A stretch of DNA of 64,000 nucleotides, from the NCBI GenBank assembly GCA_964357615.1, contig CAYHMC010000001.1:66602-130601 (forward strand), given 5' to 3'. Position 1 is the stretch's first letter. Each line of letters starts with the position of its first letter. The stretch is from an uncultured Candidatus Saccharibacteria bacterium. Its GTDB lineage: Bacteria > Patescibacteriota > Minisyncoccia > UBA6257 > JACOXY01. Below are positions 3,915-31,297 of the stretch, one piece after another. Made by a program: the position numbers and the translations under genes. A model generated the notes under the pieces. The model was not told the DNA's origin. It worked only from the letters and a program-made list of their open reading frames with translations, and made no database searches.

Positions 3915-3952
3915 TATATCAAAATCACAAAATAAAACTGTAAAAACAAATG
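3915..3952. repeat. Direct repeat copy 1 (tatatcaaaatcacaaaataaaactgtaaaaacaaatg), 70 nt upstream of the EamA gene
   Basis: 36 of 38 nt identical to the copy at 4969-5006. The 30-nt core is exact. Confidence 0.8.
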
Positions 3953-4022
3953 AAAATAAAGAAAATATTGATAAAAGAAAAAAATCCTTTATTATTTCCT
4001 TAGTTAGTACGACTCAATTTAA

Positions 4023-4946: not shown

Positions 4947-4968
4947 GTATTTAGAATTAATTAAATAT

Positions 4969-5006
4969 TATGTCAAAATCACAAAATAAAACTGTAAAAA
5001 CATATG
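4969..5006. repeat. Direct repeat copy 2 (tatgtcaaaatcacaaaataaaactgtaaaaacatatg), about 20 nt downstream of the EamA stop
   Basis: Matches copy 1. It lies between the convergent gene ends at 4946 and 5061. Confidence 0.8.
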
Positions 5007-5060
5007 CAAGCGTTGCTGATTTTATTGAAAAAATATAAAGTGAAATAGTTTTTTCTGGTT

Positions 5061-6248: not shown

Positions 6249-6249
6249 T

Positions 6250-6522
6250 TTATTTTATGAATCTATATTTATGCTCTACATAAATAACTCTCCACCAATA
6301 TTTTCCTTGCTTATAGCCCAAAACAATTCCTCCCATAAGAAGTATTAATGATCCTATGTGATGAATAAGGTACCAGTTGCTCCAGCTAAGACCAAGCCCG
6401 TATTTTCTAAAATCTTTAATAAGTAAATTGAGTATTGAGATTTCTAAAAATGCATGAATTAGAAAGCTGACAATGATTCCCAAAAGAGTAAAAAGAGAAA
6501 TATATAAAGTTTTTTTAGTCAT
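6250..6522 (-). CDS. Small integral membrane protein (2-3 TM), co-transcribed with the dehydrogenase
   Basis: 90-aa hydrophobic ORF. Its stop is 2 nt before the downstream gene start. Confidence 0.5.
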   Translation of the reverse strand: MTKKTLYISLFTLLGIIVSFLIHAFLEISILNLLIKDFRKYGLGLSWSNWYLIHHIGSLILLMGGIVLGYKQGKYWWRVIYVEHKYRFIK

Positions 6523-6655
6523 AATCTTTATTATACACGAAAAAAGAGGAATTTTTAGGACAGCATAATAAGATTGTTACATTTTCTTCCAAATCTCGTA
6601 TTATATATTATGAAAGTTCGTCGTATTAAAATTAATAATCATTTAAGTTAAAGAT

Positions 6656-7225
6656 ATGAAACAAAAAACAATTATGTTAGTAGGTTTGGCAGTAATTTTG
6701 ATAGTAGCAGGGGGATGTTATATTTTTTCAACAAAAAATAATGGTGATGTAGTTTTGGATTCAACTCCTAAAAATGTAACTCTTTCTGGGGAGTATGCTT
6801 GTTTGCCACATTTAAATCCAAGTGAAGACACAACAAAAGAATGTGCATTTGGATTAAAAACTGATGATGGTGTCTACTATGCGATTAATTTTGGTGAATC
6901 AGCGAACGCGATGGAATTATTTCAAAGTGGCGCACGCATTAGCGCAGAAGGATTTGTGGTAATAAAAGAAGCACTAAGCACAGACCAGTGGGCTAAATAT
7001 AATATGAAAGGAATATTTACAATTACTAAATTTATTGATGGACAGATACCCGTACAAGGCAAACTTAATATTAACGCAATATGTGAAGGAGCCCTTGCTT
7101 ATATGACATTTAAAGATGGGAAATCTGCAGATGCATTTGTTCTAGAATGCAAAGATGGAAAGCATCCTGAAGTAATCGAAAAATATAAAAAAGATATGGG
7201 GCTAGGGGATGGATCAACAATTTAA
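6656..7225 (+). CDS. Putative secreted lipoprotein (signal peptide, lipobox VAGGC)
   Basis: N-terminal hydrophobic segment followed by a Cys. 189 aa. Confidence 0.55.
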   Translation: MKQKTIMLVGLAVILIVAGGCYIFSTKNNGDVVLDSTPKNVTLSGEYACLPHLNPSEDTTKECAFGLKTDDGVYYAINFGESANAMELFQSGARISAEGFVVIKEALSTDQWAKYNMKGIFTITKFIDGQIPVQGKLNINAICEGALAYMTFKDGKSADAFVLECKDGKHPEVIEKYKKDMGLGDGSTI

Positions 7226-7295
7226 ACTTTTATCGCTCGTGCATTCATCTTAATGGTTTCGCACTTCATCATTTTAAAAAATTTGTTAATTAAAA

Positions 7296-7326
7296 TAAAA
7301 ACCGGCATTACTTTTGCCGGCTCACA
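7296..7326 (-). terminator. Rho-independent terminator hairpin CCGGCA-aaagtaat-GCCGG followed by a U-run (minus sense)
   Basis: aaaaaccggcattacttttgccggctcac. It is bidirectional in character and lies between the convergent genes 6656-7225 and 7328-7810. Confidence 0.6.
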
Positions 7327-7327
7327 T

Positions 7328-7810
7328 TTATTTTAATGGGTTCTTTTTCTGATCCATTAATTTTAGTTCTGGAATTGTTTTAGATATAAATAGCGCAAAA
7401 TATCTTAAAAATTGTTCTCCGCGCATTATGGTAATGAAACGAGAATTTTCTCTAAGAGCCATTGTTGGATTAAAAGTTAGCAATTGATACTCGCCTTTAG
7501 ATATATATAATTCGCGCTCATATATTTCGTTTAGAATTGGATTTGCAGATAAATTTAATGTTACGAAATTATCATTGGATTCTGGAGGTAGCCAACCAAT
7601 AGGCACGGGGATTATACATTCATATGGTTCGTTATGGGGTGGCGGGAATAATTCTTTACAATTAATTCCTCTTTCAATATATAATCGAAATGTTGAATTG
7701 GAAAGTTTTTTGCTGACGCCACCTCTCTTTAAACTTACACTACCAAAAAATGTTTCTCCGAACATTATTTTCCTTAGATTTGAATATGCTAAAGAAAATT
7801 TAACTAACAA
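7328..7810 (-). CDS. Hypothetical protein
   Basis: 160-aa ORF with no recognisable motif. Confidence 0.45.
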   Translation of the reverse strand: MLVKFSLAYSNLRKIMFGETFFGSVSLKRGGVSKKLSNSTFRLYIERGINCKELFPPPHNEPYECIIPVPIGWLPPESNDNFVTLNLSANPILNEIYERELYISKGEYQLLTFNPTMALRENSRFITIMRGEQFLRYFALFISKTIPELKLMDQKKNPLK

Positions 7811-7833
7811 TTAGTTCGATGTCAATTTAAAGT

Positions 7834-8094
7834 TTAGGTATTTCTACTTTTACCTACGCCATAGTGCATTTTAAAGATTGCAGATAATGCAATGACAAAC
7901 CAAATAACATTTATAAATGTCGAGGGCCAAGCTTTTTGAACAAATGAATTTGATGCAATTCCAATTGCTCCAACTAAATTCATAAAATGATATATGAACG
8001 AACTACTTTTAATTTTCTCAGTTGTAAGTAAATAGTAGGCAAGAAGAATTAAAACAGCACCAACCCAGCCGAAAATCTCTGTAAACACAATCAT
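7834..8094 (-). CDS. Small membrane protein (3 TM)
   Basis: 86-aa hydrophobic ORF. Confidence 0.45.
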   Translation of the reverse strand: MIVFTEIFGWVGAVLILLAYYLLTTEKIKSSSFIYHFMNLVGAIGIASNSFVQKAWPSTFINVIWFVIALSAIFKMHYGVGKSRNT

Positions 8095-8203
8095 ATAGAA
8101 TCCCTTTTGTGATAGCTAGGGTTAGAATAAGCTGATGATTTCGATTGTCAATAACTTTGATAATTTTAGTCCAGTATAATACAATTCCTCTCAGCAATTT
8201 GAG

Positions 8204-8482
8204 GTGAGAATAATGGAAAGCATAGACGAATTTGTTCAAAGAAAAAGAGACGAGATAATAAGTTATATAACTAGTTTTAGAAAAAGCTTAGTTAATGATT
8301 TTGAATTTTGGTCTATTCGGGAATTAAATGATGAAACTAAAAGAAAGTTAAAAGAAAAGCTCGAAGGTATACCATTTAGAAATGTTTTTGGTGAAACAAT
8401 TTATCCTAAAGTGGAATTTTATTTTCACCGTGTCTGGGGAACAATTATAAATATTTTTACAGAAGACAAACCGCAAAAATAA
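8204..8482 (+). CDS. Hypothetical small protein
   Basis: 92 aa. Followed by a hairpin terminator AAACCGC...GCGGTTT plus a T-run at 8466-8497. Confidence 0.45.
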   Translation: MRIMESIDEFVQRKRDEIISYITSFRKSLVNDFEFWSIRELNDETKRKLKEKLEGIPFRNVFGETIYPKVEFYFHRVWGTIINIFTEDKPQK

Positions 8483-8535
8483 TGCGGTTTTATTTTTTGT
8501 GTTTTTCTAATTCAATTTGTATACTTTAAGAGTAA

Positions 8536-9204
8536 ATGAGATTTGAAGAATATGAGGGAAAAACTAAAGATGAACGCCGGATTACTGCTTCAGAAGATGA
8601 ATCTCTTGAAGTAAAAAGATTTATACTTTCAAGAAACCCTGAAGTCCAAGAAAGACTCCGTGTATTAAGGGAGGTTTTTAAGGAACTTCAAGGAAAATAT
8701 CCCGAAATTATTTCACTAAGTTTATATGGATCACTTACAAAGGGTTACGCAACCGAAGACTCTGATATTGATGCATTTTTGCACATAAATGGAGAAATAG
8801 AAAAGCACGAATATTCCAAAGAAGAGTTGTATGAATTATTTGTGGATATAGTAAGAGAAAAATTGAAACTTAATAAAGCACAAGTTGAAAATATAAAATT
8901 TGATGCTCTAAATAAAAAAGAAATTGAAGAAGATTGCAGAAAGGGTTTTGTAGACGAGAGAACACCTATTTTTAGATTGTTTCTTTTATCAATAGACAGA
9001 GATATAAATGAATATAGAAGAGTAGTTTTTGATACTCTAGAATCTATGGGAAAGAAAGGGGAAAATCTTTGGATGACATTAATGACTAGTGTAAGTAGCT
9101 TTGAAAATCATGGTCTTGATGATGGGCTTGAGTCTAGGCGTGGAAAACTCTATCCACAAACATTAGCTGAAGGAAGAAAATATTTTTTAGGAAACTCAAA
9201 TTAA
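8536..9204 (+). CDS. Minimal polbeta-superfamily nucleotidyltransferase with a C-terminal helical domain
   Basis: GS-x9-DxD signature YGSLTKGYATEDSDIDAFLHI. 222 aa. Confidence 0.7.
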   Translation: MRFEEYEGKTKDERRITASEDESLEVKRFILSRNPEVQERLRVLREVFKELQGKYPEIISLSLYGSLTKGYATEDSDIDAFLHINGEIEKHEYSKEELYELFVDIVREKLKLNKAQVENIKFDALNKKEIEEDCRKGFVDERTPIFRLFLLSIDRDINEYRRVVFDTLESMGKKGENLWMTLMTSVSSFENHGLDDGLESRRGKLYPQTLAEGRKYFLGNSN

Positions 9205-9214
9205 TCAGAGTAAT

Positions 9215-9883
9215 TCAGTTTGTAACTTCTGGAATAAATAAATCATTCGGACTTGCAATTGGGTGCCAGAAACTCGCATAAACTATATTTATTGGAATTC
9301 GCTTTGCCATATTACCTATCATAGGAGATAAAATTTCTTCGTTATTTTTTCCATAAACTGTTGGTTCGTTAAAAATTTCTTTATTGGTTTTAAAGGGCCC
9401 ACAAACAGCTAGGGGATTTATAATGTCCATTGGTTTTTCAACTATACCAACCAAAAGCCCGTTATTTACTTCACAGTGCCCAAATTTACCAGGTTGATTC
9501 TCGATTTGTTTGACTAAAAGCGCATGCTCGTAGCTTAATAGTTTTTTAATATCTTCTTTTTTAAAAATGTCATCTGAAAACATTACTAGAAATTCATCGC
9601 GAATTATTGACTCAGCAAGTTTTACGGCATTAAAAGTTCCTTTCTGTTCTGTTTGTTCGATGTAGGTTATTTTACGACCAGCAAAAGTATTTCTTAGATA
9701 TTTTTTAATTTGCTCTCCTAAATATCCGACAATAACTATAACTTCGGTAACAGATTCTGGCAGAACTTCAAATGTATATTCAATCAACGCTTTACCATTT
9801 AATTTAACTAATGGTTTTGGAGTAGTAAGTGTAAGCGGTTGCATTCTTTCTCCTCGCCCTCCAGCCAAAATAATTGCTTGCAT
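9215..9883 (-). CDS. Sugar-phosphate nucleotidyltransferase (RmlA/GlmU N-terminal-domain-like)
   Basis: MQAIILAGGRGERMQPLTLTTPKPLV, the canonical NTP-transferase N-terminus. Confidence 0.8.
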   Translation of the reverse strand: MQAIILAGGRGERMQPLTLTTPKPLVKLNGKALIEYTFEVLPESVTEVIVIVGYLGEQIKKYLRNTFAGRKITYIEQTEQKGTFNAVKLAESIIRDEFLVMFSDDIFKKEDIKKLLSYEHALLVKQIENQPGKFGHCEVNNGLLVGIVEKPMDIINPLAVCGPFKTNKEIFNEPTVYGKNNEEILSPMIGNMAKRIPINIVYASFWHPIASPNDLFIPEVTN

Positions 9884-9891
9884 ATATTTTT

Positions 9892-11004
9892 TTAAGCACT
9901 AGTTTTTATAGATTCGATTATGGCAACTTCTAACGGAACCAAAGCAAAGGGGGAATACCGCATGTCGGTATATGCTCGAATTAGAGTTTTGATGAGTTTA
10001 ATAAAAAAATCTGGTGTATTTTTTGTTCCAATATTTTTGAGCGCTGTAATATCATCATTTGTTAAATCTGAACGGAATAATTCCTCTAAATCAGGATTCA
10101 TTTTAAGTGATAAAACACGCCTAAGATAATGAATTAAATCTTTTGTAAATTGCACCATATTTGTTCCGGAATCATTTAATTCATTTAGGAAAACTAATGC
10201 TTTGCTTAAATCTTTTAAAGCTAAGAGTTCAGAAAAATCTTTTAGTCTTTTAAAACCAACCCTTCCAATTGCTCGCTCTACCGTTTCGGAAGTAAGTTTT
10301 GGAGAATGCGAATGGACCTGCTCGAGCAATGATTCTGCATCACGAAGTCCACCATCCGATGCAACCGCAATAAGTTCAAGCGCATCTTCATCGAATTCGA
10401 TTTTTTCAGTTTTACAAATTGATTTAAGCTTTTGGACTATTGTTTGTCTATTTAATTTTTTAAATATAAATCTTTGAGTTCGTGATGTTATTGTGGCTGG
10501 CAATTTGTCGAATTCAGTTGTTGCAAGAATAAACATCACATGCTCGGGTGGTTCCTCAAGAGTTTTAAGTAGCGCATTAAAAGCTGGACCAGTTAACATA
10601 TGAACTTCATCAATGATAAATACTTTGCGAGCATACGACGCCGGAGCTGTTTGTGTTGCTTCTTTTAAATTTCGCATTTCATCTATACCACGATTTGAAG
10701 CGGCATCTATTTCTATAACGTCCAGTGCGCTTCCACTGTCTATTTCATTGCAAACGTGACATTTATTGCATGGCTCACCTTGACTATGAAATTTTTTGTC
10801 AGATGCCCTTAGTTCGCAGTTTACAATCTTTGCCACAAGACGGGCGGCAGTTGTTTTGCCCGTTCCTCTTGGACCAAAAAAAAGATAAGCGTGAGCAAAT
10901 TTATTTTGACGAGATGCATTTTGAAGAATTTGAACATTAATTTCTTGACCTAATAGATCAGAAAGTATTTTTGGGCGATATTTTCGATAAAGCGCGAGTG
11001 ACAT
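9892..11004 (-). CDS. dnaX: DNA polymerase III subunit gamma/tau (short form)
   Basis: HAYLFFGPRGTGKTT Walker A, a Zn module CNKCHVCNEIDSG, sensor motifs, and an N-terminal YRPK motif. Confidence 0.9.
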   Translation of the reverse strand: MSLALYRKYRPKILSDLLGQEINVQILQNASRQNKFAHAYLFFGPRGTGKTTAARLVAKIVNCELRASDKKFHSQGEPCNKCHVCNEIDSGSALDVIEIDAASNRGIDEMRNLKEATQTAPASYARKVFIIDEVHMLTGPAFNALLKTLEEPPEHVMFILATTEFDKLPATITSRTQRFIFKKLNRQTIVQKLKSICKTEKIEFDEDALELIAVASDGGLRDAESLLEQVHSHSPKLTSETVERAIGRVGFKRLKDFSELLALKDLSKALVFLNELNDSGTNMVQFTKDLIHYLRRVLSLKMNPDLEELFRSDLTNDDITALKNIGTKNTPDFFIKLIKTLIRAYTDMRYSPFALVPLEVAIIESIKTSA

Positions 11005-11117
11005 TTTTACTGTTAATTTAATATTTTTAACTCAAGTTTATAACCTAAGTATAATACTACAATTTTACTTAAGATACATTCCTTTCTTTTTTCGTCATAA
11101 TAATACATAATATTTTA

Positions 11118-12518
11118 ATGGATAAACGAACAATCTCTATAATTGGTTTGGTTGTCATATTTCTCGGAGCAATAATTTATTTTATTCCTGGTTCAAAAAT
11201 AGATCTTCAAACAAATTTAAGTGGAAAATCAGTCGCAAATTCAAACGCTTCACTTACTGATTCAGTCGATTCAGTTACGGATAGTATTTTAGCCGGTGCC
11301 CCAGAAGCTACTTCAAGCGATGTTATTGTTTCATCGGGCTCAGATTATAACGACATTGAACCGCAAAAGCCCTTACCAAATCCACCATCAGTAATTAAGG
11401 CAATTTATGCCACGAGTTGGTCAGCTGGTTCAGCGCGAAAGGTGGATTATTTAATTGATTTAATAAAAACAACAGAACTTAATGCCATAGTAATAGATTT
11501 AAAAGATTTTTCTGGCCATACTTTGTATGATAGCCAGCTTGAACTTGTAAAAAAATATAAAGCTAAAGATGTTCGAATTCCTAAAATTAATGCATTAATT
11601 AAAAAATTGCATGACGAAGGAATTTATGTGATAGGTAGACAGACTATTTTTCAAGATCCAGTTTTGGCAAAAGCTAGGCCAGATTTAGCAATTCAAAAAG
11701 ATATTTTAGATAAAACAGTTGAAATTCAAAACAGCACTTCAACTTCTGCTCAACAGGCGGTAACTAAAAGAGTGACTTGGTATGACAGCAAAGGTTTAGC
11801 TTGGATAGACCCAGGAGCTAAAGATGCTTGGGATTATAATATTGCAATTGCAAAAGAAGCTGTGTCGCGGGGTGTTGACGAAATAAACTTTGATTATATT
11901 AGATTTCCAACAGACGGGAAAATCAACGAAATGAAGTTTAGTCATTTCGATGCAAATAATATGCAGAAAGTTACGCAGATTAATAATTTTTTTAGATACC
12001 TAAAAGAAAATACAAATGGAATGAATACCTCGGCAGATCTTTTTGGTTTGGTAACAGTTAACAATGATGACTTAGGAATAGGACAAAACTTAAAATCAGC
12101 TGCGCCATATTTTTATGCAATTTCGCCGATGGTTTATCCATCACATTACGCCAAAGGATTTATTGGTTACAGTAACCCAGCCGAACACCCAGCCGAAGTA
12201 ATTACTTATTCTATGCAACAAGCTCTTAAAAAATTTATAACTGAAGAGATTTGTAATGATGAAGTTCTAGTTTCAACTTCAACAGATTCAATTGCTACTA
12301 CAACAAAAAAAGCATGTACCAAAAAAGAAGTTAAGTATATGGAAGCTAAACTTCGTCCGTGGTTACAAGATTTTAATTTGGGCGCACAATATGGAGTTGA
12401 AAAGGTAAGAGCTCAAATAAATGCAGTTGATAAAATATTGAAAAACACACCAGCTTATAATGGGTGGATGCTTTGGAACCCATCAAATGTTTACACCAAG
12501 GGTGCTCTAGAGTTATAA
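11118..12518 (+). CDS. Secreted TIM-barrel glycoside-hydrolase-like protein (GHL/DUF4015-like)
   Basis: Signal anchor with a Ser-rich linker. AIYATSWSAG...LNAIVIDLKDFSGH resembles putative glycosyl hydrolase-like families. Confidence 0.5.
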   Translation: MDKRTISIIGLVVIFLGAIIYFIPGSKIDLQTNLSGKSVANSNASLTDSVDSVTDSILAGAPEATSSDVIVSSGSDYNDIEPQKPLPNPPSVIKAIYATSWSAGSARKVDYLIDLIKTTELNAIVIDLKDFSGHTLYDSQLELVKKYKAKDVRIPKINALIKKLHDEGIYVIGRQTIFQDPVLAKARPDLAIQKDILDKTVEIQNSTSTSAQQAVTKRVTWYDSKGLAWIDPGAKDAWDYNIAIAKEAVSRGVDEINFDYIRFPTDGKINEMKFSHFDANNMQKVTQINNFFRYLKENTNGMNTSADLFGLVTVNNDDLGIGQNLKSAAPYFYAISPMVYPSHYAKGFIGYSNPAEHPAEVITYSMQQALKKFITEEICNDEVLVSTSTDSIATTTKKACTKKEVKYMEAKLRPWLQDFNLGAQYGVEKVRAQINAVDKILKNTPAYNGWMLWNPSNVYTKGALEL

Positions 12519-12542
12519 TAATTGAAATAAATTAAAATAAAT

Positions 12543-13799
12543 ATGTTTGCAAATCTTAGAGTTCGATGGAAAGTTGTAATTGGAATTATAGTTGAAATTA
12601 TTTTATTAGTCGGAGTTGGTTTCGGCGGTTTTTATGTTGGAACACTTTTTGCATCTGTTCAGCCACATACCATTACATTGTCCATGAATAATGTAACTGG
12701 AACTTCTACCACACCGGACTTCAATACATTTTGGCAAGCATGGGAAATTGTTAAAAAAGATGCACTTCACGGCAAAAATTTAACTGATAAAGATTTATTA
12801 TACGGTGCAATTAGAGGAGTTGTTGGATCGCTCAAAGACCCACACACGGTATTTATGCCTCCATCTGATGCAAAAAAGTTTTCAGATGAGATAAGAGGTA
12901 GTTTTGGTGGCGTGGGAATGGAAATTGGAAAGCGTGAAGGCAGGTTGCTCGTTATTTCTCCACTTAAAGATTCTCCAGCAGAAAAGGCAGGGTTAATGGC
13001 CAATGACTATATCATAAAGATTGGTGATATTTTTACTGAAGCATTAGATGTTGAGCAAGCGGTAGATTTAATTCGAGGTCCAAAAGGCACTCCTGTAAAG
13101 CTTGAGTATGTAAGATCTGGCTGGACAGAGCCGAAACAAATTTCAATTATTAGAGATACTATTGTTGTTCCAACGATCGAATATGTAAAGCTAGACAATA
13201 ATATTGCCCATATTAAGCTGTATAATTTTAATGAGAAGGCTGCGGATGGAATAATGGATGCGCTTCGGAGTGCAGAAAAAGATGGAGCAGAGCGTATAAT
13301 TTTAGATTTAAGAAATAATCCAGGAGGCTTTCTTGAAATATCAGTTCGTATTGCTGGGCTTTGGTTGCCTGAGGGGATGGTAGTTGTAAGTGAGGAATTT
13401 AGAGACGAAAGTAGCAATGAGAAATTTACATCGCCAGGAAATGGTGCGTTAAAAAATATTCCAACTGTTATTTTGATAAACGGTGGCTCCGCATCTGCAT
13501 CAGAAATTTTGGCTGGGGCACTTCGAGATAATCTTGGAATAAAATTAATTGGCACAAAAACTTTTGGCAAGGGGACTGTTCAAATATTAAAACAACTCAC
13601 GGATGGCTCAAATGTAAAGGTGACTGTTGCAAATTGGCTTTTACCCAAAGGAGAAACAATTGAAGGAAATGGCATAAAGCCCGACATTGAAGTTAAAATA
13701 ACCGAAGAACAAATTAAAAAAGAAATAGACCCGCAACTGAAACGCGCAATAGAAGAAGTTAATAAAATAAAACCAAATTTAACTATTGAAAAAATTTAA
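12543..13799 (+). CDS. ctpA: C-terminal processing (tail-specific) peptidase, S41 family with a PDZ domain
   Basis: PDZ segment GGVGMEIG...SPAEKAGL. S41 core ILDLRNNPGGFL. Includes the GSASASEI segment. Confidence 0.9.
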   Translation: MFANLRVRWKVVIGIIVEIILLVGVGFGGFYVGTLFASVQPHTITLSMNNVTGTSTTPDFNTFWQAWEIVKKDALHGKNLTDKDLLYGAIRGVVGSLKDPHTVFMPPSDAKKFSDEIRGSFGGVGMEIGKREGRLLVISPLKDSPAEKAGLMANDYIIKIGDIFTEALDVEQAVDLIRGPKGTPVKLEYVRSGWTEPKQISIIRDTIVVPTIEYVKLDNNIAHIKLYNFNEKAADGIMDALRSAEKDGAERIILDLRNNPGGFLEISVRIAGLWLPEGMVVVSEEFRDESSNEKFTSPGNGALKNIPTVILINGGSASASEILAGALRDNLGIKLIGTKTFGKGTVQILKQLTDGSNVKVTVANWLLPKGETIEGNGIKPDIEVKITEEQIKKEIDPQLKRAIEEVNKIKPNLTIEKI

Positions 13800-14270: not shown

Positions 14271-15497
14271 ATGAAAATCAAAAACTCTGGTTTCACACTT
14301 CTCGAACTGCTCATTGTTATTGGAATATTAGCAGTGCTTTCTACCGCAGCAGTTTTAGTTCTAAATCCCATAGAATTACTTAGACAAGCGAGGGATTCAA
14401 CTAGAATTTCAGATCTTCAAAATATTCATAAATCACTGGCTATATATCAAGCTAGTGTATCTTCTCCAAGTTTTGGAAATTCAAATACAATTTATATTTC
14501 TATTCCTGATTCGAGTGTCACTTGTAATAATGTTTCATCCACTCTTCCAACAGTGCCTCCCGGTTGGAGTTATAGTTGTGCGACAACTGCAAATTTTAGA
14601 AAAGTAAACGGAACTGGTTGGTTGCCAATTAATTATACAACGATGCCTCAGGGTTCATCATTTTCTATTTTGCCTATTGATCCAATAAATAGCGCCACAG
14701 CACAGCAATATTATGCTTATGTTCCGGGTGGTAGTTGGGTAATTACAGCTGCGCTTGAATCTCAAAAACTTTTAAATGGCGCAAAAACAGATCAGGGAGG
14801 CGATGACACAAGACTTGAGGTTGGTAATGATATTGAGCTTTGGACATCCGCATCTGGACTTGTTGGTTATTGGAAATTTGACGAAGGTTCTGGGTTAACT
14901 GCAATTGATAGTTCTGGTTTAGGGCATAATGGAGTTTTTAATGGAACGATAGCCGATTCGCATTCATCAACAAACTGTAAGCAAGGAGGTTGTATATTGC
15001 TTAGTGCATCTAGTTCGCAATATGTGCGTGTTCCAGGCGCCGCAAGTACAAGTATGGCAAATGGGCACACAATTGCCCTGTGGTTTAAGCCGTCGATTTT
15101 AGCTTTAAGTACGAATATACTAGTTAGCTCGCCTTCGTTGCCTTATATTTCAAATCATCTCTCACCATTTAAAACATATCACAGAGCTATAATAGGTGGA
15201 GTTCAAAACGCTGTACAGGGTCCGACTAACGCAACGGTTGGTACATGGGCTTTTCAGGTTGGAACATATGATGGCAGTAACTTGAGGGCCTATACAGATG
15301 GTGTTGCTGGTGCGCCCATGGCATTAAGCGGAGCAGATACTAGAGATATCCCTTCGTCTGATGTGCTGTGTATCGGAAGTTATGATTGTCGCACAACACC
15401 AACTTTTTTTACAAACGGTTCAATTGATGAAGTCCGTATTTATAACAGAGCCCTTACTGATACAGAGATTAAGGCATTATATAATTCGACTAAGTAG
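14271..15497 (+). CDS. Type IV pilin/pseudopilin-like protein (prepilin N-methylation motif GFTLLELLIV) with a C-terminal LamG/concanavalin-like domain
   Basis: Class III signal peptide. The C-terminal DEVRIYNRALTDTEIKALYN is a LamG hallmark. Confidence 0.8.
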   Translation: MKIKNSGFTLLELLIVIGILAVLSTAAVLVLNPIELLRQARDSTRISDLQNIHKSLAIYQASVSSPSFGNSNTIYISIPDSSVTCNNVSSTLPTVPPGWSYSCATTANFRKVNGTGWLPINYTTMPQGSSFSILPIDPINSATAQQYYAYVPGGSWVITAALESQKLLNGAKTDQGGDDTRLEVGNDIELWTSASGLVGYWKFDEGSGLTAIDSSGLGHNGVFNGTIADSHSSTNCKQGGCILLSASSSQYVRVPGAASTSMANGHTIALWFKPSILALSTNILVSSPSLPYISNHLSPFKTYHRAIIGGVQNAVQGPTNATVGTWAFQVGTYDGSNLRAYTDGVAGAPMALSGADTRDIPSSDVLCIGSYDCRTTPTFFTNGSIDEVRIYNRALTDTEIKALYNSTK

Positions 15498-17399: not shown

Positions 17400-17714
17400 T
17401 TGACCGAATTTAAGGAGTATGTTTGTAGAAAAATCAGCGATGCATTATCAAGAATTATAGACGACGGAAAATTGGCGAGAAAAACTTTTAATAACAAAGG
17501 AATATTTATTTCAAATACAAACAGAGGTCCCTTTATTAAATTTATCGCAGATACTTTGTTGCACGACGGTGAATTTTTGGATAAAATTGATATGATTGAT
17601 TTAGAAAGAACTATCTTTGATGTGCTTTTAGAAACGCAGAGAAAAGCTAGTATGCAGGAAAGAGCGGCGGCAATTGCTAAGGCACTGACTGAAAAAAGAA
17701 ATTCCAGTTTATAA
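17400..17714 (+). CDS. Hypothetical protein
   Basis: 104-aa ORF followed by a strong terminator. Confidence 0.5.
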   Translation: MTEFKEYVCRKISDALSRIIDDGKLARKTFNNKGIFISNTNRGPFIKFIADTLLHDGEFLDKIDMIDLERTIFDVLLETQRKASMQERAAAIAKALTEKRNSSL

Positions 17715-17925: not shown

Positions 17926-17953
17926 AAACCACATTATTATGTGGATTTTTTTA
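17926..17953 (-). terminator. Bidirectional hairpin CCACAT-tatt-ATGTGG flanked by A- and T-runs
   Basis: aaaaaaaccacattattatgtggattttttt, immediately after the stop of the 17951-18640 gene. Confidence 0.6.
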
Positions 17954-18640
17954 GAGTGTTTTTTCTTTTAATACCAAAGAATGGTTTAAAACATCTATTC
18001 CGAGCGTTTCGTTGCTTCGTTTAAGCATTACTTCTATATGGCCAATAGATTTACCAGTATTATCTTCTACAGCTATAAGGCGAGTGTAATATGGCGCATC
18101 ATAGCAATCACCACTTTTTAGAATTTGCGCAGCTTCATAGGCCGTATTTACTCTGCGCTTATATTCGTCTTTAATATCTTCGAATACTCCACTAATTCCA
18201 ATTCCAGAATCTTTAAAGTCAACGGCTTTGCTTGTAAGCGCTTCTACTGTGCAAGCGTAGAGCCAATATCGTAATTCATCAGATTCTTCCCAGTCGCCAT
18301 TTGCAACTTTAATTTGTGGCACGCGTTGAATTAATCTTGTGATGGCATAATTTAATTCTCCCAAATACGCCCCTTCATAATTGTATCGCCTTGATACATC
18401 ATAAATTATTCTTGCTAGTTCAAAAGTAGGAGCATCAAATTTACGATTGGTGTCATTGTGGCTAACTAATTGAATAAGTCTAGTTCCAATTGTAGAAAAA
18501 ATTTTCTTATATATGACGATAAGCGAAAGATTTCTGGTGATTTGAGATGCTGCTTCAACTGCAACGGATTCAACTGCTAGGTCAAGAATTACACGATCGG
18601 TCGATTTGCCATCAGTCTTTATGCTTGGTACATACGGCAT
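17951..18640 (-). CDS. Hypothetical cytoplasmic protein (all-alpha, acidic)
   Basis: 229-aa ORF. I could not assign a family. Confidence 0.55.
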   Translation of the reverse strand: MPYVPSIKTDGKSTDRVILDLAVESVAVEAASQITRNLSLIVIYKKIFSTIGTRLIQLVSHNDTNRKFDAPTFELARIIYDVSRRYNYEGAYLGELNYAITRLIQRVPQIKVANGDWEESDELRYWLYACTVEALTSKAVDFKDSGIGISGVFEDIKDEYKRRVNTAYEAAQILKSGDCYDAPYYTRLIAVEDNTGKSIGHIEVMLKRSNETLGIDVLNHSLVLKEKTL

Positions 18641-20363: not shown

Positions 20364-20466
20364 AATTTAATTAGTATTAAAATTTTATACAGCAAACGCC
20401 AGACTCAAGTTTCAAGATATTAACTTAAGTATCCACAAATTTTTATGGTATAATTATATCACTATT

Positions 20467-20877
20467 ATGGAAGATAAATTTACGCCACAAGAAAGTTTTC
20501 CACAGAATGATATAGAGCGCATTCAAAAAGAAGTTGAGCGTATTAAAAATACACCAGAATTTGAAGGTGTTGATGACCGAGCTGTAATTAAGGAATCAAT
20601 AAAACAAGCCTATCCTCAAATAACCCCACAAAATGTTGCTTCTTCTGCTAGTCCTGTTACTGACCACAATGAGAATAATTTATTGCCTGCGTATATGCAA
20701 AATGATTCAGACGAAGATAAAGACGAAGTAGAAGAGTTAATTCATTTAGCGCTAACAGCTGGAATAGAAATTGCTATTGCGGAAGCTAGAAAAAGACGAA
20801 CTCGCATATTAGACGACCTTCACGATGCGTTAACGGATAAAGTAATGCCGCAGCTCGAAGACAGGAATAAACTTTAG
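20467..20877 (+). CDS. Hypothetical acidic protein
   Basis: 136-aa ORF. Confidence 0.5.
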   Translation: MEDKFTPQESFPQNDIERIQKEVERIKNTPEFEGVDDRAVIKESIKQAYPQITPQNVASSASPVTDHNENNLLPAYMQNDSDEDKDEVEELIHLALTAGIEIAIAEARKRRTRILDDLHDALTDKVMPQLEDRNKL

Positions 20878-20905: not shown

Positions 20906-21358
20906 ATGGAAACACTTATAAAAAAACAAGAAGAATCTCATGATGAAAAAATAAGATCTGGAGTTGAGGAGGTAATTAAAAAAAGATTTAATGCGGCTCT
21001 TTTGTTAGAAAAAGACAAAGAGGAATTACCCAATGATTTTCCAAGCATGATAGCTGAATATGTTGAGTTGATAACAAGGGAACTTAGGGATTTAAAATTA
21101 AGTTCAGACGAGGCATTTAGCAGTTTATTAGCCTTATGTGACCCAGAGCTTGGATGGAATTTAAATGAAAATGTAGAAGTTAAAAATTTTTTACGAAAAA
21201 AAGCCAAAGAAAAAGTTGATGATTTTATTGCTGGGCGTAGCTATCTCTATAAGACTTCTGCTAAGCAAGCTGCTTTAGAAATGGCCGAATATTACGCTGG
21301 TTTAGGAATTTTAAACTTGGATACTGATCACGATCTTTTCAACGAATTAACAAAATAA
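20906..21358 (+). CDS. Hypothetical acidic protein
   Basis: 150-aa ORF, co-oriented with and tightly spaced before the VirD4-like gene. Confidence 0.5.
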   Translation: METLIKKQEESHDEKIRSGVEEVIKKRFNAALLLEKDKEELPNDFPSMIAEYVELITRELRDLKLSSDEAFSSLLALCDPELGWNLNENVEVKNFLRKKAKEKVDDFIAGRSYLYKTSAKQAALEMAEYYAGLGILNLDTDHDLFNELTK

Positions 21359-21365
21359 TTTTCTA

Positions 21366-23792
21366 ATGTCAATTCTTTACATAATTCTCTTTATTATAAT
21401 CTCAACACTCCTTGGTTACGGAGGTTATTTTGTTTATAAAAAATCAAATTCAAAAAGGCTTTTTAAATCGTTAGAATTAGAATTATTTTCTGTCGAACTT
21501 CCGCAGTCAACAAAAAAAGAAGGGGAACCAAAAAATCTTAAAGAAGAGATTAATATGTCAGAGCAATTATTTTCTGCCCTTTCATCTCTTGAAGCACCCT
21601 TTGCGCTTGAGGCGTCAGTGAGCCATATAGGAGAAGATATAAACTTTTATATTGGAGTGCACAAAGACTATGCGCAAACAATCGTAAAACAAATTCAAAG
21701 CATTTGGCCGGGCGGACAGATAAAACCAGCAGAAGATTATAATATATTTAATCCAAGCGGAATAAGTTCTTCTGCTTATGTTACCCAAAAAGATTCCTAT
21801 GCACTGCCAATTCGTACATATCAAGAATTAGAGTCCGACACATTTTCACAAATAGTAGGCGGCCTTTCAAAGCTTGATGAAATAGGAGAAGGAGCAGCTA
21901 TTCAAATTTTAGTAACACCTGCACCAAAAAGCGCTAGAGTTGCAATTGGAAGCCGAATTAAAAGATTAAAAGAAGGAGAGTCTTTGAAAGAAGTTTTAAA
22001 TGCAATGCCTTCGCTTTCAAATATTGCGAAAACTCTTTCTACTACTAATAAAGATAAAGATATTCCAAAAATGAAAATTGTGGACGAACAAGCGGTGAAA
22101 GCTTTAGATATGAAGGCAGGTAAACCACTTTTTGGCGTAAACGCTCGTATTGTGGGTTCGGGACCAACACAAATGCATGCGGAAGCAATAGTAAACGGAA
22201 TTGTTACGGGATTTTCACAATTTAGTGCGCCATTTAGAAATAATTTTAAAGTTGTAAGACCAAGAAATTTAGATAAATTTAATTATCAGTTTGTTTTTAG
22301 AGAGTTTGATGAAAGTCAGATGCTAATAGTAAATAGTGAAGAACTTGCAAGTTTTTTTCATTTGCCAACTACTTCAACAAACATTCCACGCATTAAGTGG
22401 CTTAAATCAAAGGAGGCAAACCCTCCTTCAAATTTGCCAGAATCTGGTGTGTTTATTGGAGAAACATCTTATAGGGGAGAGAAAAAACCAGTTTATATTT
22501 CCGAAGCAGACAGACGTCGTCATGTTTATGTTGTTGGTCAAACTGGAACAGGTAAATCCACTTTAATTTACAATATGGCAGTAAATGATATTCGAGATGG
22601 AAAGGGCGTATGTGTAATTGATCCAAATGGAGATTTGATTGAAATTTTAATTCAGGCAATTCCAAAAGAACGAGTTGATGATTTAATAATATTTGACCCA
22701 GGAGACTTATCGAGGCCATTGGGGCTCAATATGCTTGAATATGACATAACGAAGCCAGAGCAAAAATCTTTTATCAGTGACGAGCTGATGCTAATTTTTG
22801 ATAGATTGTTTGACATGAAAACAGTTGGTGGGCCAATGTTTTTACGCTATGCATCTAATGCCCTTATGCTTTTGATGGACGACCCAGACGAAGGTGGAAC
22901 TTTAGCAGATGTGCCAAGAATATTTACCGACCACGAGTTTAGAAACAAATTAGTTAATAAATGTAAAAATCCACTAGTGCAAGATTTTTGGGTTAAAGAA
23001 GCTTCAAAAGTTAAAGGTGAGTATTCACTTGAAAATACCGCGCCATATTTCACTTCTAAGTTTAATAGCTTTATTGCAAATGATTATGTTAGGCCAATTA
23101 TTGCGCAACCTAAATCCGCATTTAATTTTAGACAAGTTATGGACGAGGGAAAAATATTGCTTGTCAATTTATCAAAAGGAAAAATTGGGGAATTAAACGC
23201 ATCACTTTTGGGTATGATAATTGTTGGCAAATTACAGCTCGCAGCATTTGGAAGAGCTGATATCGTAGATCAAAATGCGCGTAAAGATTTTTATTTATAT
23301 ATCGACGAGTTTCAAAATTTTACAACAGATTCAATTTCAACTATTTTATCAGAAGCTAGAAAATATAGGTTGAATTTAATTATTGCTCATCAATTTATCG
23401 CGCAACTTACAGATAAAATTAGAAATGCAGTATTTGGTAATGTGGGTTCAGTTATTGCCTTAAGAGTCGGAATACAAGATGCAGAAACTTTAGTTAAGCA
23501 ATTTGAGCCTGTATTTAACCAAAATGATTTGATTAATATAGACAACCTTAATGCTTATGTGAGATTGCTTATTAATGGGGAAACTTCGAGACCATTTAAT
23601 ATAAAAGTGCCACTTATGTATATTAATAATCTTGAATATGGCGCTAAATTAAAAGAAATAAATGCGCTAAAATATGGTCGCCCAAGAGCAGAAGTAGAAG
23701 CAAGAGTTTACGAGCGACTTCGTGGTCCAATTGCACCAGTATCACCAGCTGCACCACCAAGCACACCTCCTGTTGTGCCTCCCGATAAATAA
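21366..23792 (+). CDS. VirD4/TraG/TraD-like type IV coupling protein ATPase (FtsK/HerA superfamily) with an N-terminal TM and a Pro-rich C-terminal tail
   Basis: Walker A VVGQTGTGKST. Walker B LYIDEFQNF. A TraG/VirD4-type ARKYRLNLIIAHQ motif. N-terminal hydrophobic helix. Confidence 0.75.
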   Translation: MSILYIILFIIISTLLGYGGYFVYKKSNSKRLFKSLELELFSVELPQSTKKEGEPKNLKEEINMSEQLFSALSSLEAPFALEASVSHIGEDINFYIGVHKDYAQTIVKQIQSIWPGGQIKPAEDYNIFNPSGISSSAYVTQKDSYALPIRTYQELESDTFSQIVGGLSKLDEIGEGAAIQILVTPAPKSARVAIGSRIKRLKEGESLKEVLNAMPSLSNIAKTLSTTNKDKDIPKMKIVDEQAVKALDMKAGKPLFGVNARIVGSGPTQMHAEAIVNGIVTGFSQFSAPFRNNFKVVRPRNLDKFNYQFVFREFDESQMLIVNSEELASFFHLPTTSTNIPRIKWLKSKEANPPSNLPESGVFIGETSYRGEKKPVYISEADRRRHVYVVGQTGTGKSTLIYNMAVNDIRDGKGVCVIDPNGDLIEILIQAIPKERVDDLIIFDPGDLSRPLGLNMLEYDITKPEQKSFISDELMLIFDRLFDMKTVGGPMFLRYASNALMLLMDDPDEGGTLADVPRIFTDHEFRNKLVNKCKNPLVQDFWVKEASKVKGEYSLENTAPYFTSKFNSFIANDYVRPIIAQPKSAFNFRQVMDEGKILLVNLSKGKIGELNASLLGMIIVGKLQLAAFGRADIVDQNARKDFYLYIDEFQNFTTDSISTILSEARKYRLNLIIAHQFIAQLTDKIRNAVFGNVGSVIALRVGIQDAETLVKQFEPVFNQNDLINIDNLNAYVRLLINGETSRPFNIKVPLMYINNLEYGAKLKEINALKYGRPRAEVEARVYERLRGPIAPVSPAAPPSTPPVVPPDK

Positions 23793-23806: not shown

Positions 23807-24355
23807 GTGATAGATGACAAAATATTTATTGCAGAAGTAAAAACAAAATCTCCCTTTGGGTATAGCTCCTCAAATTTTTTTGAGGAGCTATTTGATTTAG
23901 CAAATACTTATGGGGATGTGATTTCAATCCATACAGACAAAAGGTGGGGAGGATCGTTTGAGTTGCTTCAAGAAGCAAGAAAACTAACAAGCAAACCAAT
24001 TTTAGCAAAGGGGATTCATAAAACCGACGAAGAAATAAATAGGGCGCTTTCTTGTGGGGCAAACTTTGTTTTAGTTGTTGGCAGAATACCAAAAGATATA
24101 TCCCCAGAGTTCCTTCTAATTGAGCCAGTCTCTTTAGAAGAGCTCAGAGCAATTCCAAAAAATTATAAAGTTGTTTGGAATGCAAGAAATTTAGAAACTG
24201 GTAATCCAAAGTTTGAAACATTCGCAGAGGCGCGTAAAATTTTTGATGGTTGGCTCTGTCAGGCAAGTTTTATTAAAATAAAAAATGATATAGAAAAAAG
24301 TGCCAATGCAATTCTTGTAGGGGAAAATTTGAAAGAATTTACATCATCTCTTTAG
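23807..24355 (+). CDS. Compact indole-3-glycerol-phosphate-synthase-like (TrpC-like) TIM-barrel protein
   Basis: IAEVKTKSPFGY matches the TrpC IAEIKraSPSkG motif. ISIHTDKRWGGSFE, VWNARNLETG and ILVGENL segments align with the IGPS core. 182 aa, shorter than typical TrpC. Confidence 0.5.
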   Translation: MIDDKIFIAEVKTKSPFGYSSSNFFEELFDLANTYGDVISIHTDKRWGGSFELLQEARKLTSKPILAKGIHKTDEEINRALSCGANFVLVVGRIPKDISPEFLLIEPVSLEELRAIPKNYKVVWNARNLETGNPKFETFAEARKIFDGWLCQASFIKIKNDIEKSANAILVGENLKEFTSSL

Positions 24356-29371: not shown

Positions 29372-31297
29372 TTAGTAATCAATTTTTTTTACTTTTTGAT
29401 TCCGTATGCGAAATGTTATTACAAGAATTCCAGCTAGAGTAATCAGAATTACATACAAAATCATAAAAAATCTAAACCAAGAAAAATTACTTTCTTCACC
29501 AATGAATAAAGATGCAAACATTGAATTTTTAGAAGTAATATTAGTACTAGAGCCAATCATATTTGAGCTAGATGCAACTGATGTATTATTTTCAGTGTTT
29601 CCTGCAGATGCAATATCATTCAAATTATAAACGCGTCCATCACTACACATTACAATATTTGTTAATTCACAACTACCAGAAACCGATAAAATTTCTCCAT
29701 TTGGTAGAGTTATTTTTGACGAAGTAGTTGAATTATTGTTATGAATTTCATCTGAGTTTTGTGCCGAAGGGGTAATTGAAGTAGTTGGCTTACCAATTCC
29801 ATTTAATGACCTTGGTAATATTTTTGTAGCACAATTTACAAAAGCCCTCTTTCCCAAATTATCAGATATAGTTAGAGTAACAATTTTTGTTCCAACGGTT
29901 CTAAAACTAATTTTTTGCGAATCACCAATTTTTGAGATTGCACCTGCCCAAACATATGAATATGGTGCTGTTCCACCAATTGCTCTTGCACTAAATAAAA
30001 CTTCCTCACCAACTTCTGCAGTATTTTTGTTTACATCACAAATGGCATTAAAATAAGTTCCCGAATTTGCTCCGGAAGAACCAATCGGTGTTTTTGTAGG
30101 TGTTGGTGAAGTTTTTGGAAGATTAGAAACAGACCCATCTGTTGCTGTTTTTTCAATTGATACTAAAGCAGATGCATAAGTCGAACCAGTTTCGCCGTAG
30201 CAAGTTAATGTGTAATTTGTTTGGGAATTTGGCCAAACATATTCCACTCCGTTTGCTGGTTTAACACCTTGCCAGCCACCAGTTGCTATACAAGAAGTTG
30301 TGTTGTTTGACTGCCATTTTAGCGTAGAGGTATATCCACTTTTAATAATTGCAGGTGATGCAGAAAAAACTAAAGATGTTTTATTTTGTAAATTATTATA
30401 ACCAGTCTGCGAATTTGGTGTTGGTGTTGGGTAGTATGCAGAGGAGTTTGATACTGTGACTGTAGCGGTAACAGTTTTGATATTGTTTCCATTTGAACAT
30501 GTAAGTGTGTAGTTTGTTGAATTAGTCGGTGAAACAAATTCATTTCCATAAGCTGGTTTAGTTCCTGTCCAAGCACCACCTCCATAACAGGCGCTCACAT
30601 TAACAGCTCCCCAACTTATTTTTGCGCTTTGTCCAGGAAATATAATTTGTGGATTGGCTGAAATTGTAATATCAATTGCGCCGTTTAGAGTATTAGAATT
30701 TATATTTGAGGAAGTACTGGTTTGACCAACACCATTTATTACAAAAACAGTTATACTTTTGCTAGTTTTATAAAGAGAATTTGAACAGCTTAGAGTATAG
30801 CTAGTAGTATTTTGTGGAGCTACAGAAATTGAGCCAGAAGAAAGATAGTTTCCAGCAAAGCCCCCACTTGCAATACAGCGATCTGTATCGGTTGAGCTCC
30901 AAGTAATAAGTGATGAATCGCCTTTATTTATAGATGTCTGACTTGCAGATATATTTAGTTGAGGCATTTGTATTTGTCCTACTGATACAAATATACTTTC
31001 CGTGGTGAGCAAACCAGCGGAGTTCCAGCATTTTAATGTAAATTTAGCAGAAAAAGGTGGTTTTGAAGTATAGGAACCAGAAGTATTTCTGTGCCCGCTC
31101 CAGTTGTCGTGTGCTGAACAAGTAGAAGTGTTAGTGGTAGACCAAGTTACAGTTACGCTTTCGCCAGATATTACTTGATATTTATCAGCGCTTAGGCTGA
31201 TTGTAGGTGCGCCAATTTGAGCATACGAAATAGGCGCTACAAATAAACTAATAAATATAACGAGACAAAGGGTGTATAAAAAAGATATTTTTGTCAT
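29372..31297 (-). CDS. Cell-surface protein with a signal peptide, about five tandem Ig-like repeats of about 95 aa, a Ser/Thr-rich stalk and a C-terminal TM anchor
   Basis: Repeated pattern W(S/Q)(S/T)TN(T/A)x(S/T)C...GGWxGxK...YTLTCxN. C-terminal FRFFMILYVILITLAGILVITF followed by basic residues. Confidence 0.8.
   Translation of the reverse strand: MTKISFLYTLCLVIFISLFVAPISYAQIGAPTISLSADKYQVISGESVTVTWSTTNTSTCSAHDNWSGHRNTSGSYTSKPPFSAKFTLKCWNSAGLLTTESIFVSVGQIQMPQLNISASQTSINKGDSSLITWSSTDTDRCIASGGFAGNYLSSGSISVAPQNTTSYTLSCSNSLYKTSKSITVFVINGVGQTSTSSNINSNTLNGAIDITISANPQIIFPGQSAKISWGAVNVSACYGGGAWTGTKPAYGNEFVSPTNSTNYTLTCSNGNNIKTVTATVTVSNSSAYYPTPTPNSQTGYNNLQNKTSLVFSASPAIIKSGYTSTLKWQSNNTTSCIATGGWQGVKPANGVEYVWPNSQTNYTLTCYGETGSTYASALVSIEKTATDGSVSNLPKTSPTPTKTPIGSSGANSGTYFNAICDVNKNTAEVGEEVLFSARAIGGTAPYSYVWAGAISKIGDSQKISFRTVGTKIVTLTISDNLGKRAFVNCATKILPRSLNGIGKPTTSITPSAQNSDEIHNNNSTTSSKITLPNGEILSVSGSCELTNIVMCSDGRVYNLNDIASAGNTENNTSVASSSNMIGSSTNITSKNSMFASLFIGEESNFSWFRFFMILYVILITLAGILVITFRIRNQKVKKIDY

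Follow-up and report, generated by a model that had tools for sequence, protein, structure and literature searches.

A stretch of 64,000 nucleotides (nt) from an uncultured Candidatus Saccharibacteria bacterium (contig CAYHMC010000001.1; the whole stretch is called the window below) carries the gene of an 808-amino acid (aa) ATPase. Together with a small upstream gene, open reading frame (ORF) A, it forms a pair that is conserved on the core chromosome of Patescibacteria. The ATPase gene is a typical member of a very large, annotated and uncharacterised family, and our results suggest that this family, with its dedicated partner, is a hybrid of VirB4 and VirD4 ATPases that had gone unrecognised. 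We give a probability of about 60% to the explanation as a whole, namely that ORF A and the VirB4/VirD4 hybrid make up a hexameric membrane motor, which probably acts as a coupling or second ATPase of a type IV secretion system (T4SS) or has been exapted for another role. The genes in question are:

20467-20877 (+): ORF A, 136 aa, isoelectric point (pI) 4.58; acidic, soluble, helical; conserved partner and putative adaptor of the ATPase
20906-21358 (+): ORF B, 150 aa, pI 4.86; acidic; strain-specific orphan between ORF A and the ATPase gene
21366-23792 (+): ATPase gene, stop codon included, 808 aa; DUF8128 plus an ATPase of the type IV coupling protein (T4CP) type

The three genes are co-oriented, with spacers of 28 nt (ORF A/ORF B) and 7 nt (ORF B/ATPase), and no terminator is seen between them. 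A 100%-identical copy of the ATPase (P0001) is found on a 143,628-bp NCBI contig. The initial annotation, made from the letters of the window, had placed these three ORFs correctly in position and strand and had described them as a VirD4/TraG-like coupling ATPase with two acidic partner proteins. What it observed is confirmed; its interpretation is partly supported. From its N- to its C-terminus, the structure model of the protein shows a transmembrane helix, a module resembling the N-terminal domain of VirB4, a flexible linker, the motor of T4CP type and, last, a short tail:

21372..21437 (+): one transmembrane helix at the N-terminus, aa 3-24, with KKSNSKR after it; hydropathy 2.17 at residue 1, helix at residues 2-36 of the AlphaFold model with a predicted local distance difference test (pLDDT) score of ~90
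21477..22355 (+): DUF8128 (PF26449) alpha/beta domain, aa 38-330; Pfam name, fold predicted to be VirB4 N-terminal-domain-like
22434..23615 (+): T4CP-type nucleotide-binding domain, aa 357-750; Pfam, hhalign, Foldseek
22536..22562 (+): Walker A motif GQTGTGKST, aa 391-399; invariant in 64 homologues, aligns to the TrwB P-loop
22758..23075 (+): entirely helical insertion (six helices) separating Walker A from Walker B, aa 465-570; model secondary structure and Pfam TrwB_AAD_bind
23292..23321 (+): Walker B motif YLYIDEFQNF, aa 643-652; aligns to TrwB LWLFIDELASL
23358..23393 (+): arginine-finger/sensor motif RKYRLNLIIAHQ, aa 665-676; counterpart in TrwB RKAGLRVVAGLQ
23724..23789 (+): disordered Pro-rich tail, aa 787-808; pLDDT <50 for residues 789-808

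Judged by its sequence, the ATPase half is VirD4/TraG/TrwB-like and not FtsK or HerA. Specifically, four T4CP-associated Pfam families are matched weakly above their gathering cut-offs: T4SS-DNA_transf with 29.3 bits (cut-off 20.1), TrwB_AAD_bind with 26.4 (20.5), TraG-D_C with 24.7 (22) and DUF87 with 27.8 (23.2), the last one confined to aa 364-446 around the P-loop. As all four families pass and the ATPase has more than 4,300 homologues, the family relationship is not a chance match. The FtsK_SpoIIIE family reaches 15.1 bits against a cut-off of 24, over the P-loop only, and HerA_C 15.7 bits against 22; no FtsK chain is present among the PDB sequence matches. When a profile built from 64 family sequences is compared with the PDB, the top two matches are TrwB (E-value 3.6e-7) and DotL (E 3.6e-4). 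In head-to-head hhalign comparisons with the two ATPases of R388, the same profile scores 95.5% with TrwB (E 1.6e-8, over 321 columns that span the nucleotide-binding and all-alpha region completely) and 5.4% with TrwK/VirB4, where the alignment is limited to the P-loop. In structural alignment, Foldseek matches TrwB over the C-terminal ~420 residues only, where TrwB superposes better than VirB4 does, with a target-normalised template-modelling score (TMt) of 0.62-0.67 and a root-mean-square deviation (rmsd) of ~5 Å, and the match to HerA (E 1.8e-12, rmsd ~17 Å) is weaker than those to VirB4 and TrwB. The best NCBIfam models are also of the TraD/VirD4 type, yet they stay far below their cut-offs (SXT_TraD 53.6 vs 366, CD1115 34.4 vs 250). 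Family members and TrwB share the NCBI name 'type IV secretion system DNA-binding domain-containing protein'. Thus the claim of a VirD4/TraG-like ATPase with a TraG-type C-terminal region has stood up, and neither FtsK nor HerA turned out to be a better match.

The Walker A, Walker B and RK...Q motifs named in the initial annotation are all present. Residues G391-K397, D647, E648, R665, K666 and Q676 are invariant in the 64 homologues, and the P-loop and catalytic motifs of the motor are intact. The helical insertion has its own set of invariant positions in the same homologues (D540, F541, W542, E545, G551, N557, Y561, S564, K565 and F569), and in the model its six helices correspond to the all-alpha domain found in coupling proteins. 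The motor domain is homologous to that of the known T4CPs of the TrwB/VirD4 type (R388 TrwB, PDB 1E9R/1GKI; DotL, 6SZ9; Cag-beta, 8DOL), with which the three motifs and the helical insertion align. In T4CPs, however, two transmembrane helices directly precede the motor, whereas the 808-aa protein has one helix and the DUF8128 domain of ~300 aa in between. Moreover, the family is far more conserved than plasmid T4CPs.

Regarding the N-terminal part, the initial annotation had noticed the transmembrane helix, and it was right: hydropathy and the AlphaFold helix agree, and one such helix is present in the ATPase of 68 out of 78 related loci. The large domain behind it had been missed. Because KKSNSKR follows the helix, the positive-inside rule would place the ATPase behind it in the cytoplasm. 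The identical protein P0001 carries a precomputed Pfam match to DUF8128, as does each of the 120 homologues listed, and a UniRef member of the family is named 'DUF8128 domain-containing protein'. The full-length AlphaFold model has a mean pLDDT of 84, and its best Foldseek matches in the PDB are TrwK/VirB4 chains (E 2e-16, ~890 colinear columns). When residues 30-352 are modelled alone (pLDDT 80, predicted template-modelling score 0.81), Foldseek finds 13 PDB matches with E <= 5e-5 (from 9e-7), all of them TrwK/VirB4, with query-normalised scores (TMq) of 0.44-0.54; the following match is an unrelated fold with E 4.7e-3. The likeness is known from the model: comparing the DUF8128 profile with the N-terminal domain of TrwK by hhalign gives 0.4%, i.e. 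no sequence-profile signal, and Pfam CagE_TrbE_VirB has no match in the 808-aa protein. DUF8128 is therefore predicted to fold like the VirB4 N-terminal domain on structural grounds. Since the model of this domain matches VirB4 chains only and the motor sequence matches TrwB, the protein can be described as a hybrid with a VirB4-like front and a VirD4-like engine. Such a combination bears on the origin of coupling proteins from VirB4-like ancestors.

The same evidence could be read in another way, with the ATPase as a divergent second VirB4-like assembly ATPase for pilus or channel biogenesis. VirB4 (R388 TrwK, PDB 7O43/8RTD) has a two-domain layout of ~800 aa and aligns colinearly with the 808-aa protein along its full length. 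The succession of transmembrane helix, N-domain and C-domain is reminiscent of VirB3-VirB4 fusions, the best full-length Foldseek E-value is to TrwK/VirB4, and the N-domain resembles VirB4 only. A small gene, virB3, lies directly upstream of virB4 and is sometimes fused to the VirB4 N-terminus, which recalls ORF A. The partner is of a different kind, however: ORF A is soluble and acidic, and VirB3 is a membrane protein. The likeness to VirB4 at the level of sequence profiles stops at the P-loop, as seen in the hhalign comparison of the motor with TrwB and TrwK. The sole VirB4-family model of NCBIfam that is matched, VirB4_CagE (TIGR00929), scores 22 bits, its cut-off being 643. A separate, monophyletic clade of VirB4, located beside other T4SS genes, is already present in Patescibacteria (PMC12102498). 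Taken together, a second VirB4 is improbable, and a coupling-type motor behind a VirB4-like domain describes the protein better.

ORF A is a conserved partner of the ATPase. The survey of partners comprised 80 related loci from many Patescibacteria lineages. tblastn finds ORF A directly upstream of the ATPase gene in 25 loci, and an iterated hidden Markov model (HMM) of the family extends this to position −1 of the ATPase in 47 other loci, where stop and start codons usually abut or overlap. The N-terminal half of the family is acidic and of low complexity, and the C-terminal helix is strongly conserved (lDaFHDaL.dkLy.eL), with D116 and H119 invariant in the motif LDxxHDaLxDK. Independent evidence comes from gene fusions. 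A DUF8128 profile search of 1.84 billion representative proteins gave 2,149 clusters at 50% identity, and in at least 23 of the best 150 the DUF8128-ATPase starts with an entire, fused ORF A module. Fusions of full length are 909-932 aa long and the module stands in for the transmembrane helix. In one fused lineage the gene comes after the spc operon, secY, adk and map, with ndk also in the context. The partnership rests on both lines, that is the linkage at −1 with coupled junctions and the fusions. Every named member of the ORF A family that was found is called 'hypothetical protein', and no credible relative exists in Pfam, NCBIfam or the PDB, either with the single sequence or with the profile.

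If loci with enough upstream sequence are considered (~71), at least 65 have a small same-strand ORF of one of two families at −1. The second of these (cluster 2) occurs in 20 loci and carries the motif IPGVNkfFLEQEAKIKtD; homology to ORF A was not detected by hhalign (13%). Cluster 2 proteins (a subset of L052-L080, e.g. 5306-5839 of locus L068) are basic, with a median pI of 8.6, and occupy the same abutting −1 position. The ATPases beside them are ~43% identical to ours, ~50 aa longer, and their DUF8128 starts ~20 residues later. The cluster 2 protein may thus be an analogous, non-orthologous adaptor. In a locus of the fused lineage (L087, 5668-5994) a 108-aa acidic helical ORF with pI 5.5 is found 6 nt upstream of the fused gene, and homology of this ORF to ORF A was not detected. 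Small acidic proteins near these ATPases seem to be a recurrent, fast-evolving theme.

The initial annotation had taken both small acidic proteins as partners of the ATPase. Both are acidic and ORF A is co-conserved, but ORF B is a strain-specific orphan insertion in a variable spacer and encodes a putative protein. No counterpart is present in any of the 80 related loci, nor in the closest relatives, whose ATPases are 74-81% identical, and among 5.8 billion proteins ORF B has one match, with 99% identity; searches of Pfam, NCBIfam, PADLOC and PHROG gave no match. The distance between ORF A and the ATPase gene is 113 nt in one relative (L083). In another (L081, ATPase 81% identical) it is ~1 kb and apparently non-coding (3936-5000), and this spacer holds a 50%-identical duplicate of the first 30 codons of the ATPase (4310-4399). 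The spacer looks like a hotspot of insertion or rearrangement, with ORF B sitting in the same spot.

A comparison with small partners of coupling ATPases elsewhere gives an analogy. IcmS and IcmW are small acidic helical adaptor proteins. In the DotL-IcmS/IcmW complex of Legionella (PDB 6SZ9) a coupling ATPase is combined with such adaptors. DotL itself is matched by our motor domain in both sequence and fold. Its adaptors sit on the C-terminal tail, whereas the linkage of ORF A is to the N-terminus of the ATPase. No homology of ORF A to PDB proteins was detected, and the likeness to IcmS/IcmW is an analogy only.

The window is an ordinary part of the core chromosome in a low-GC Patescibacteria genome, with genes for LeuRS, GlmS, PBP2, MreB, DnaX, L9, Ddl, PyrG, Pgk, DnaB, RecR and a type IV pilin-LamG protein, and the neighbourhood of the ATPase gene consists of pyrG, pgk, an RNase H-family gene, dnaX, L9, leuS, mreB and PBP2. 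GC content is unremarkable, with no compositional anomaly seen, and synteny with pyrG and pgk is kept in relatives. The closest named relatives of the ATPase carry the label Candidatus Liptonbacteria. The best 120 homologues share 55-60% identity over the full length; the family is very strongly conserved and appears to be vertically inherited. Absence of VirB4, relaxase and integrase genes from the window, as put forward initially, holds for the ORFs scanned or read in the 64 kb. None was found in ~10 kb past each window end either, for which a Hainich groundwater assembly of the same organism was used (~84 kb surveyed in total for T4SS, relaxase and integrase genes). Relaxase and mating-pair-formation genes are not among the recurrent neighbours in 78 related loci, and homologues of VirB3, VirB6 and VirB8 are not beside the ATPase gene in the window, the flanks or these loci. 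T4CPs, in contrast, are linked to a relaxase or a T4SS.

These data leave very little room for a remnant of a conjugative element or prophage, or for a component of anti-phage defence of the MADS mad8/HerA-like kind. PADLOC does report a mad8 match (E 3.6e-17, aa 362-732) together with weak HerA matches, and the phage family phrog_5156 matches the full-length ATPase with E 5.5e-78, with homologues in Bacillus phages. However, there is no integrase, relaxase, transposase, other mad gene or anomalous composition, and the preserved pyrG/pgk synteny and strong conservation are the opposite of what a decaying remnant or a patchy defence island would give. We rejected the origin from a mobile element or prophage on context and composition. 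The defence reading was rejected because the mad8/HerA matches come without partner genes: the mad8 match is at the level of a domain and no other defence genes are adjacent. Both versions are largely refuted and highly improbable. It is important to note that the annotation 'conjugative DNA transfer family protein' wrongly suggests mobile DNA.

An orphan translocase, as the initial annotation called it, fits the absence of a T4SS nearby, but the orphan state is normal in this phylum and already published. More specifically, Quinonero-Coronel et al. 2025 (PMC12102498) report 5,713 VirD4-like T4CP homologues in 2,918 of 3,035 Patescibacteria genomes (~96%), with only 148 of them near virB4. The observation of an orphan T4CP is therefore already known, and the authors raise exaptation of the T4CP homologues as possible. 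The homologues in that report are near-universal, far from virB4 and without relaxase, like the 808-aa family, and the DUF8128 ATPases are almost certainly this set or a large part of it. Because the report gives about two T4CP homologues per genome, the DUF8128 proteins may be one of two paralogous groups. The DUF8128/VirB4-like domain, the partner with its fusions, and the phage and haloarchaeal relatives are not described in the parts of PMC12102498 covered. A full-text literature search for 'DUF8128' returned no paper, and neither the VirB4-like front domain nor the partner, conserved or fused, nor the relatives in phages and archaea were found described in the literature.

Relatives of the ATPase are not restricted to Patescibacteria. 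The Bacillus phage homologues include gp156 of phage G, proteins of SPO1-like phages and CP-51, and ORF23 of D6E, with 22-25% identity; the likeness of these phrog_5156 proteins is full-length and the N-terminal domain is included. The hosts in this case are Firmicutes. The fold of the N-terminal domain is shared as well (Foldseek against BFVD, E 6.9e-19, TMq 0.66). No ORF A-like gene could be recognised from the annotations of the phage loci D6E and SP8, whose neighbourhoods are uninformative. A tblastn search of 72,556 plasmids matched 670 records, and among the 40 matches listed none is annotated as VirB4, the names being T4CP-type or generic. DUF8128 was matched on 29 plasmids, nearly all of them haloarchaeal, at 21-24% identity. 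On haloarchaeal megaplasmids the same two modules are present but split: an ORF of 350 aa for DUF8128 immediately precedes the gene of a T4CP-like ATPase of 930 aa, beside two large hypothetical proteins, and the plasmids are typed non-mobilizable. As the two modules are seen both split and fused, their association must be old. The family is widespread and repurposed and not an orphan plasmid leftover.

One haloarchaeal example is locus L093 on plasmid CP085328 of Haladaptatus salinisoli (4253-12690), which is typed non-mobilizable. Four genes lie there on the same strand, encoding 410-aa and 1,072-aa hypothetical proteins, DUF8128 and the ATPase. Such a four-gene cluster may be an undescribed archaeal transfer or secretion module.

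How could the unit work in Patescibacteria? We propose that the ATPase is anchored to the membrane by its one N-terminal helix and, by analogy with TrwB, VirB4 and HerA, would form a hexameric ring. On the inner side of the membrane, ATP would drive the moving or hand-over of a macromolecule, be it a nucleic acid or a protein. DUF8128 could be a platform for membrane partners, as is the N-terminal domain of VirB4. ORF A probably docks at or near DUF8128 and would act on the N-terminal side of the motor as an adaptor for docking or regulation; some lineages have it covalently fused there in place of the membrane helix. The unit probably acts as coupling or second ATPase for a relaxase-less chromosomal T4SS that most Patescibacteria have elsewhere in the genome, or in a role exapted from this. 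Domain architecture, motif integrity, partner linkage and chromosomal context are what the analysis shows; hexamer, substrate and T4SS link we infer. VirB4 is present in 2,417 Patescibacteria genomes (80%; PMC12102498), and the T4SS cluster of Southlakia, essential in this one species with genetic tests, is without a recognisable coupling protein or relaxase (PMC10633639, Wang et al. 2023).

Several points weigh against a role in a T4SS. There is no T4SS gene within the ~84 kb around the ATPase gene. Outside the candidate phyla radiation (CPR), the closest relative of the motor stands alone as an ATPase on a Sulfitobacter plasmid (34% identity), where the annotation shows no T4SS gene in the 7 kb around it, and full-length relatives occur in lytic Bacillus phages. 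Because of these plasmid and phage relatives, a motor of this type can work outside secretion systems. Furthermore, the T4CP homologues are commoner than VirB4 (2,918 vs 2,417 genomes), and in Southlakia, where the T4SS is essential, the T4CP homologue, which may or may not belong to the DUF8128 family, was reported as non-essential (PMC12102498).

The main rival explanation follows from these same points: the ORF A-ATPase pair would be a T4SS-independent membrane motor for uptake, export or segregation of DNA or RNA in organisms that have to scavenge their nucleotides. We regard this as possible, though tentative. Apart from the wider distribution of T4CP homologues, the dispensable Southlakia homologue and the phage and plasmid relatives without a T4SS annotated nearby, it would account for the housekeeping context that is always seen, such as dnaX at +2/+3 (26 loci) or, for the fused lineage, the spc operon, secY, adk and ndk. 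NCBIfam also gives weak matches to the archaeal DNA-translocating ATPase CedD. On the other hand, no DNA-binding motif or gamma-like domain is present, and no linkage to comEC or comF was seen in the related loci examined. A lone transmembrane helix, absent in the fusions, cannot itself make a membrane channel, and N-terminal domains of the VirB4 type are known to dock membrane subunits of T4SS. FtsK reportedly figures in transcriptome studies of the saccharibacterium TM7x, going by their titles, and a substitute for FtsK may thus be unnecessary.

A broader version of the rival is that the DUF8128-T4CP ATPases and their adaptor represent an ancient third lineage of VirB4/VirD4 ATPases that has retained a VirB4-like front on a VirD4-like engine, acting across the phylum as a T4SS-independent nucleic-acid motor, for instance in the uptake or hand-over of host DNA or RNA. 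This seems unlikely to us. If it is true, such a motor could be the cytoplasmic engine still missing from the picture of a nucleotide-scavenging lifestyle. Note that Patescibacteria account for a large part of the diversity of bacteria, and that their hosts supply nucleotides, amino acids and lipids. A family that mixes features of both T4SS ATPases and has a partner of its own gives a handle on how macromolecular traffic is energised.

The Pro-rich tail, described initially as unusual, is real, with 36% Pro in the final 25 aa. It is lineage-specific and not a trait of the family, since comparable tails are present in 2 out of 78 related loci.

One candidate for the promoter of the ORF A-ATPase unit was noticed:

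20445..20453 (+): candidate promoter, extended −10-like TGgTATAAT, 13 nt before the start of ORF A, read by eye as a putative signal

A consensus promoter scan found no −35/−10 pair at this site, and the promoter and terminator scan gave counts not above those of shuffled sequence.

Regarding other features of the neighbourhood, dnaX recurs on the same strand at +2/+3 of the ATPase gene in 26 of the 78 related loci, and in the window it is found ~10 kb from the ATPase gene on the opposite strand (9892-11004). Simple synteny within a lineage may explain this recurrence, or it may point to a connection with DNA metabolism. Directly downstream, 14 nt past the ATPase stop, a GTG-start ORF of 182 aa opens (23807-24355, +). 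It has a partial match to Pfam IGPS (indole-3-glycerol-phosphate synthase; E 5e-10, profile positions 49-242 of 254) and is 76% identical in the nearest relative L081; other genes are found at this place in L083. Such a truncated TrpC-like barrel is surprising, given that the organism is presumed to make no tryptophan. A further ORF, at 17951-18640 (−), encodes 229 aa with a DUF6899 match (E 5e-10) and lies between a small hypothetical ORF (17400-17714) and pyrG. Past the left window end (L092, 4749-9193, same organism) a DndB-like protein of 669 aa is followed by Hypoth_Ymh and Imm5-like genes, and the stretch may be a small defence or immunity island.

The Rickettsia sRNA47 family of Rfam (RF02800) is matched at 13308-13617 (−) over the full model length with 66.7 bits against a gathering cut-off of 60. 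The match is antisense within an S41 peptidase/CtpA-like gene (12543-13799), and it is probably a coding-sequence artefact of the Rfam family and not a real small RNA.

Three genes for surface proteins were also observed. At 48417-52055 (+) a protein of 1,212 aa has an N-terminal signal or anchor helix and no Pfam match at E <= 1e-3; it would be a large surface or secreted protein. The 641-aa protein encoded at 29372-31297 (−) has a signal peptide, several similar Cys-containing repeats of ~90 aa of the type 'SxxTxCxA...GxxxxxPxxTTxYTLxC' and a C-terminal transmembrane anchor, with no Pfam match, and may be an adhesin for host interaction. Finally, at 14271-15497 (+) a type IV pilin-like protein with an N_methyl motif is fused to a Laminin_G_3/LamG lectin-like domain, which is consistent with pilus-mediated attachment of an episymbiont to its host.

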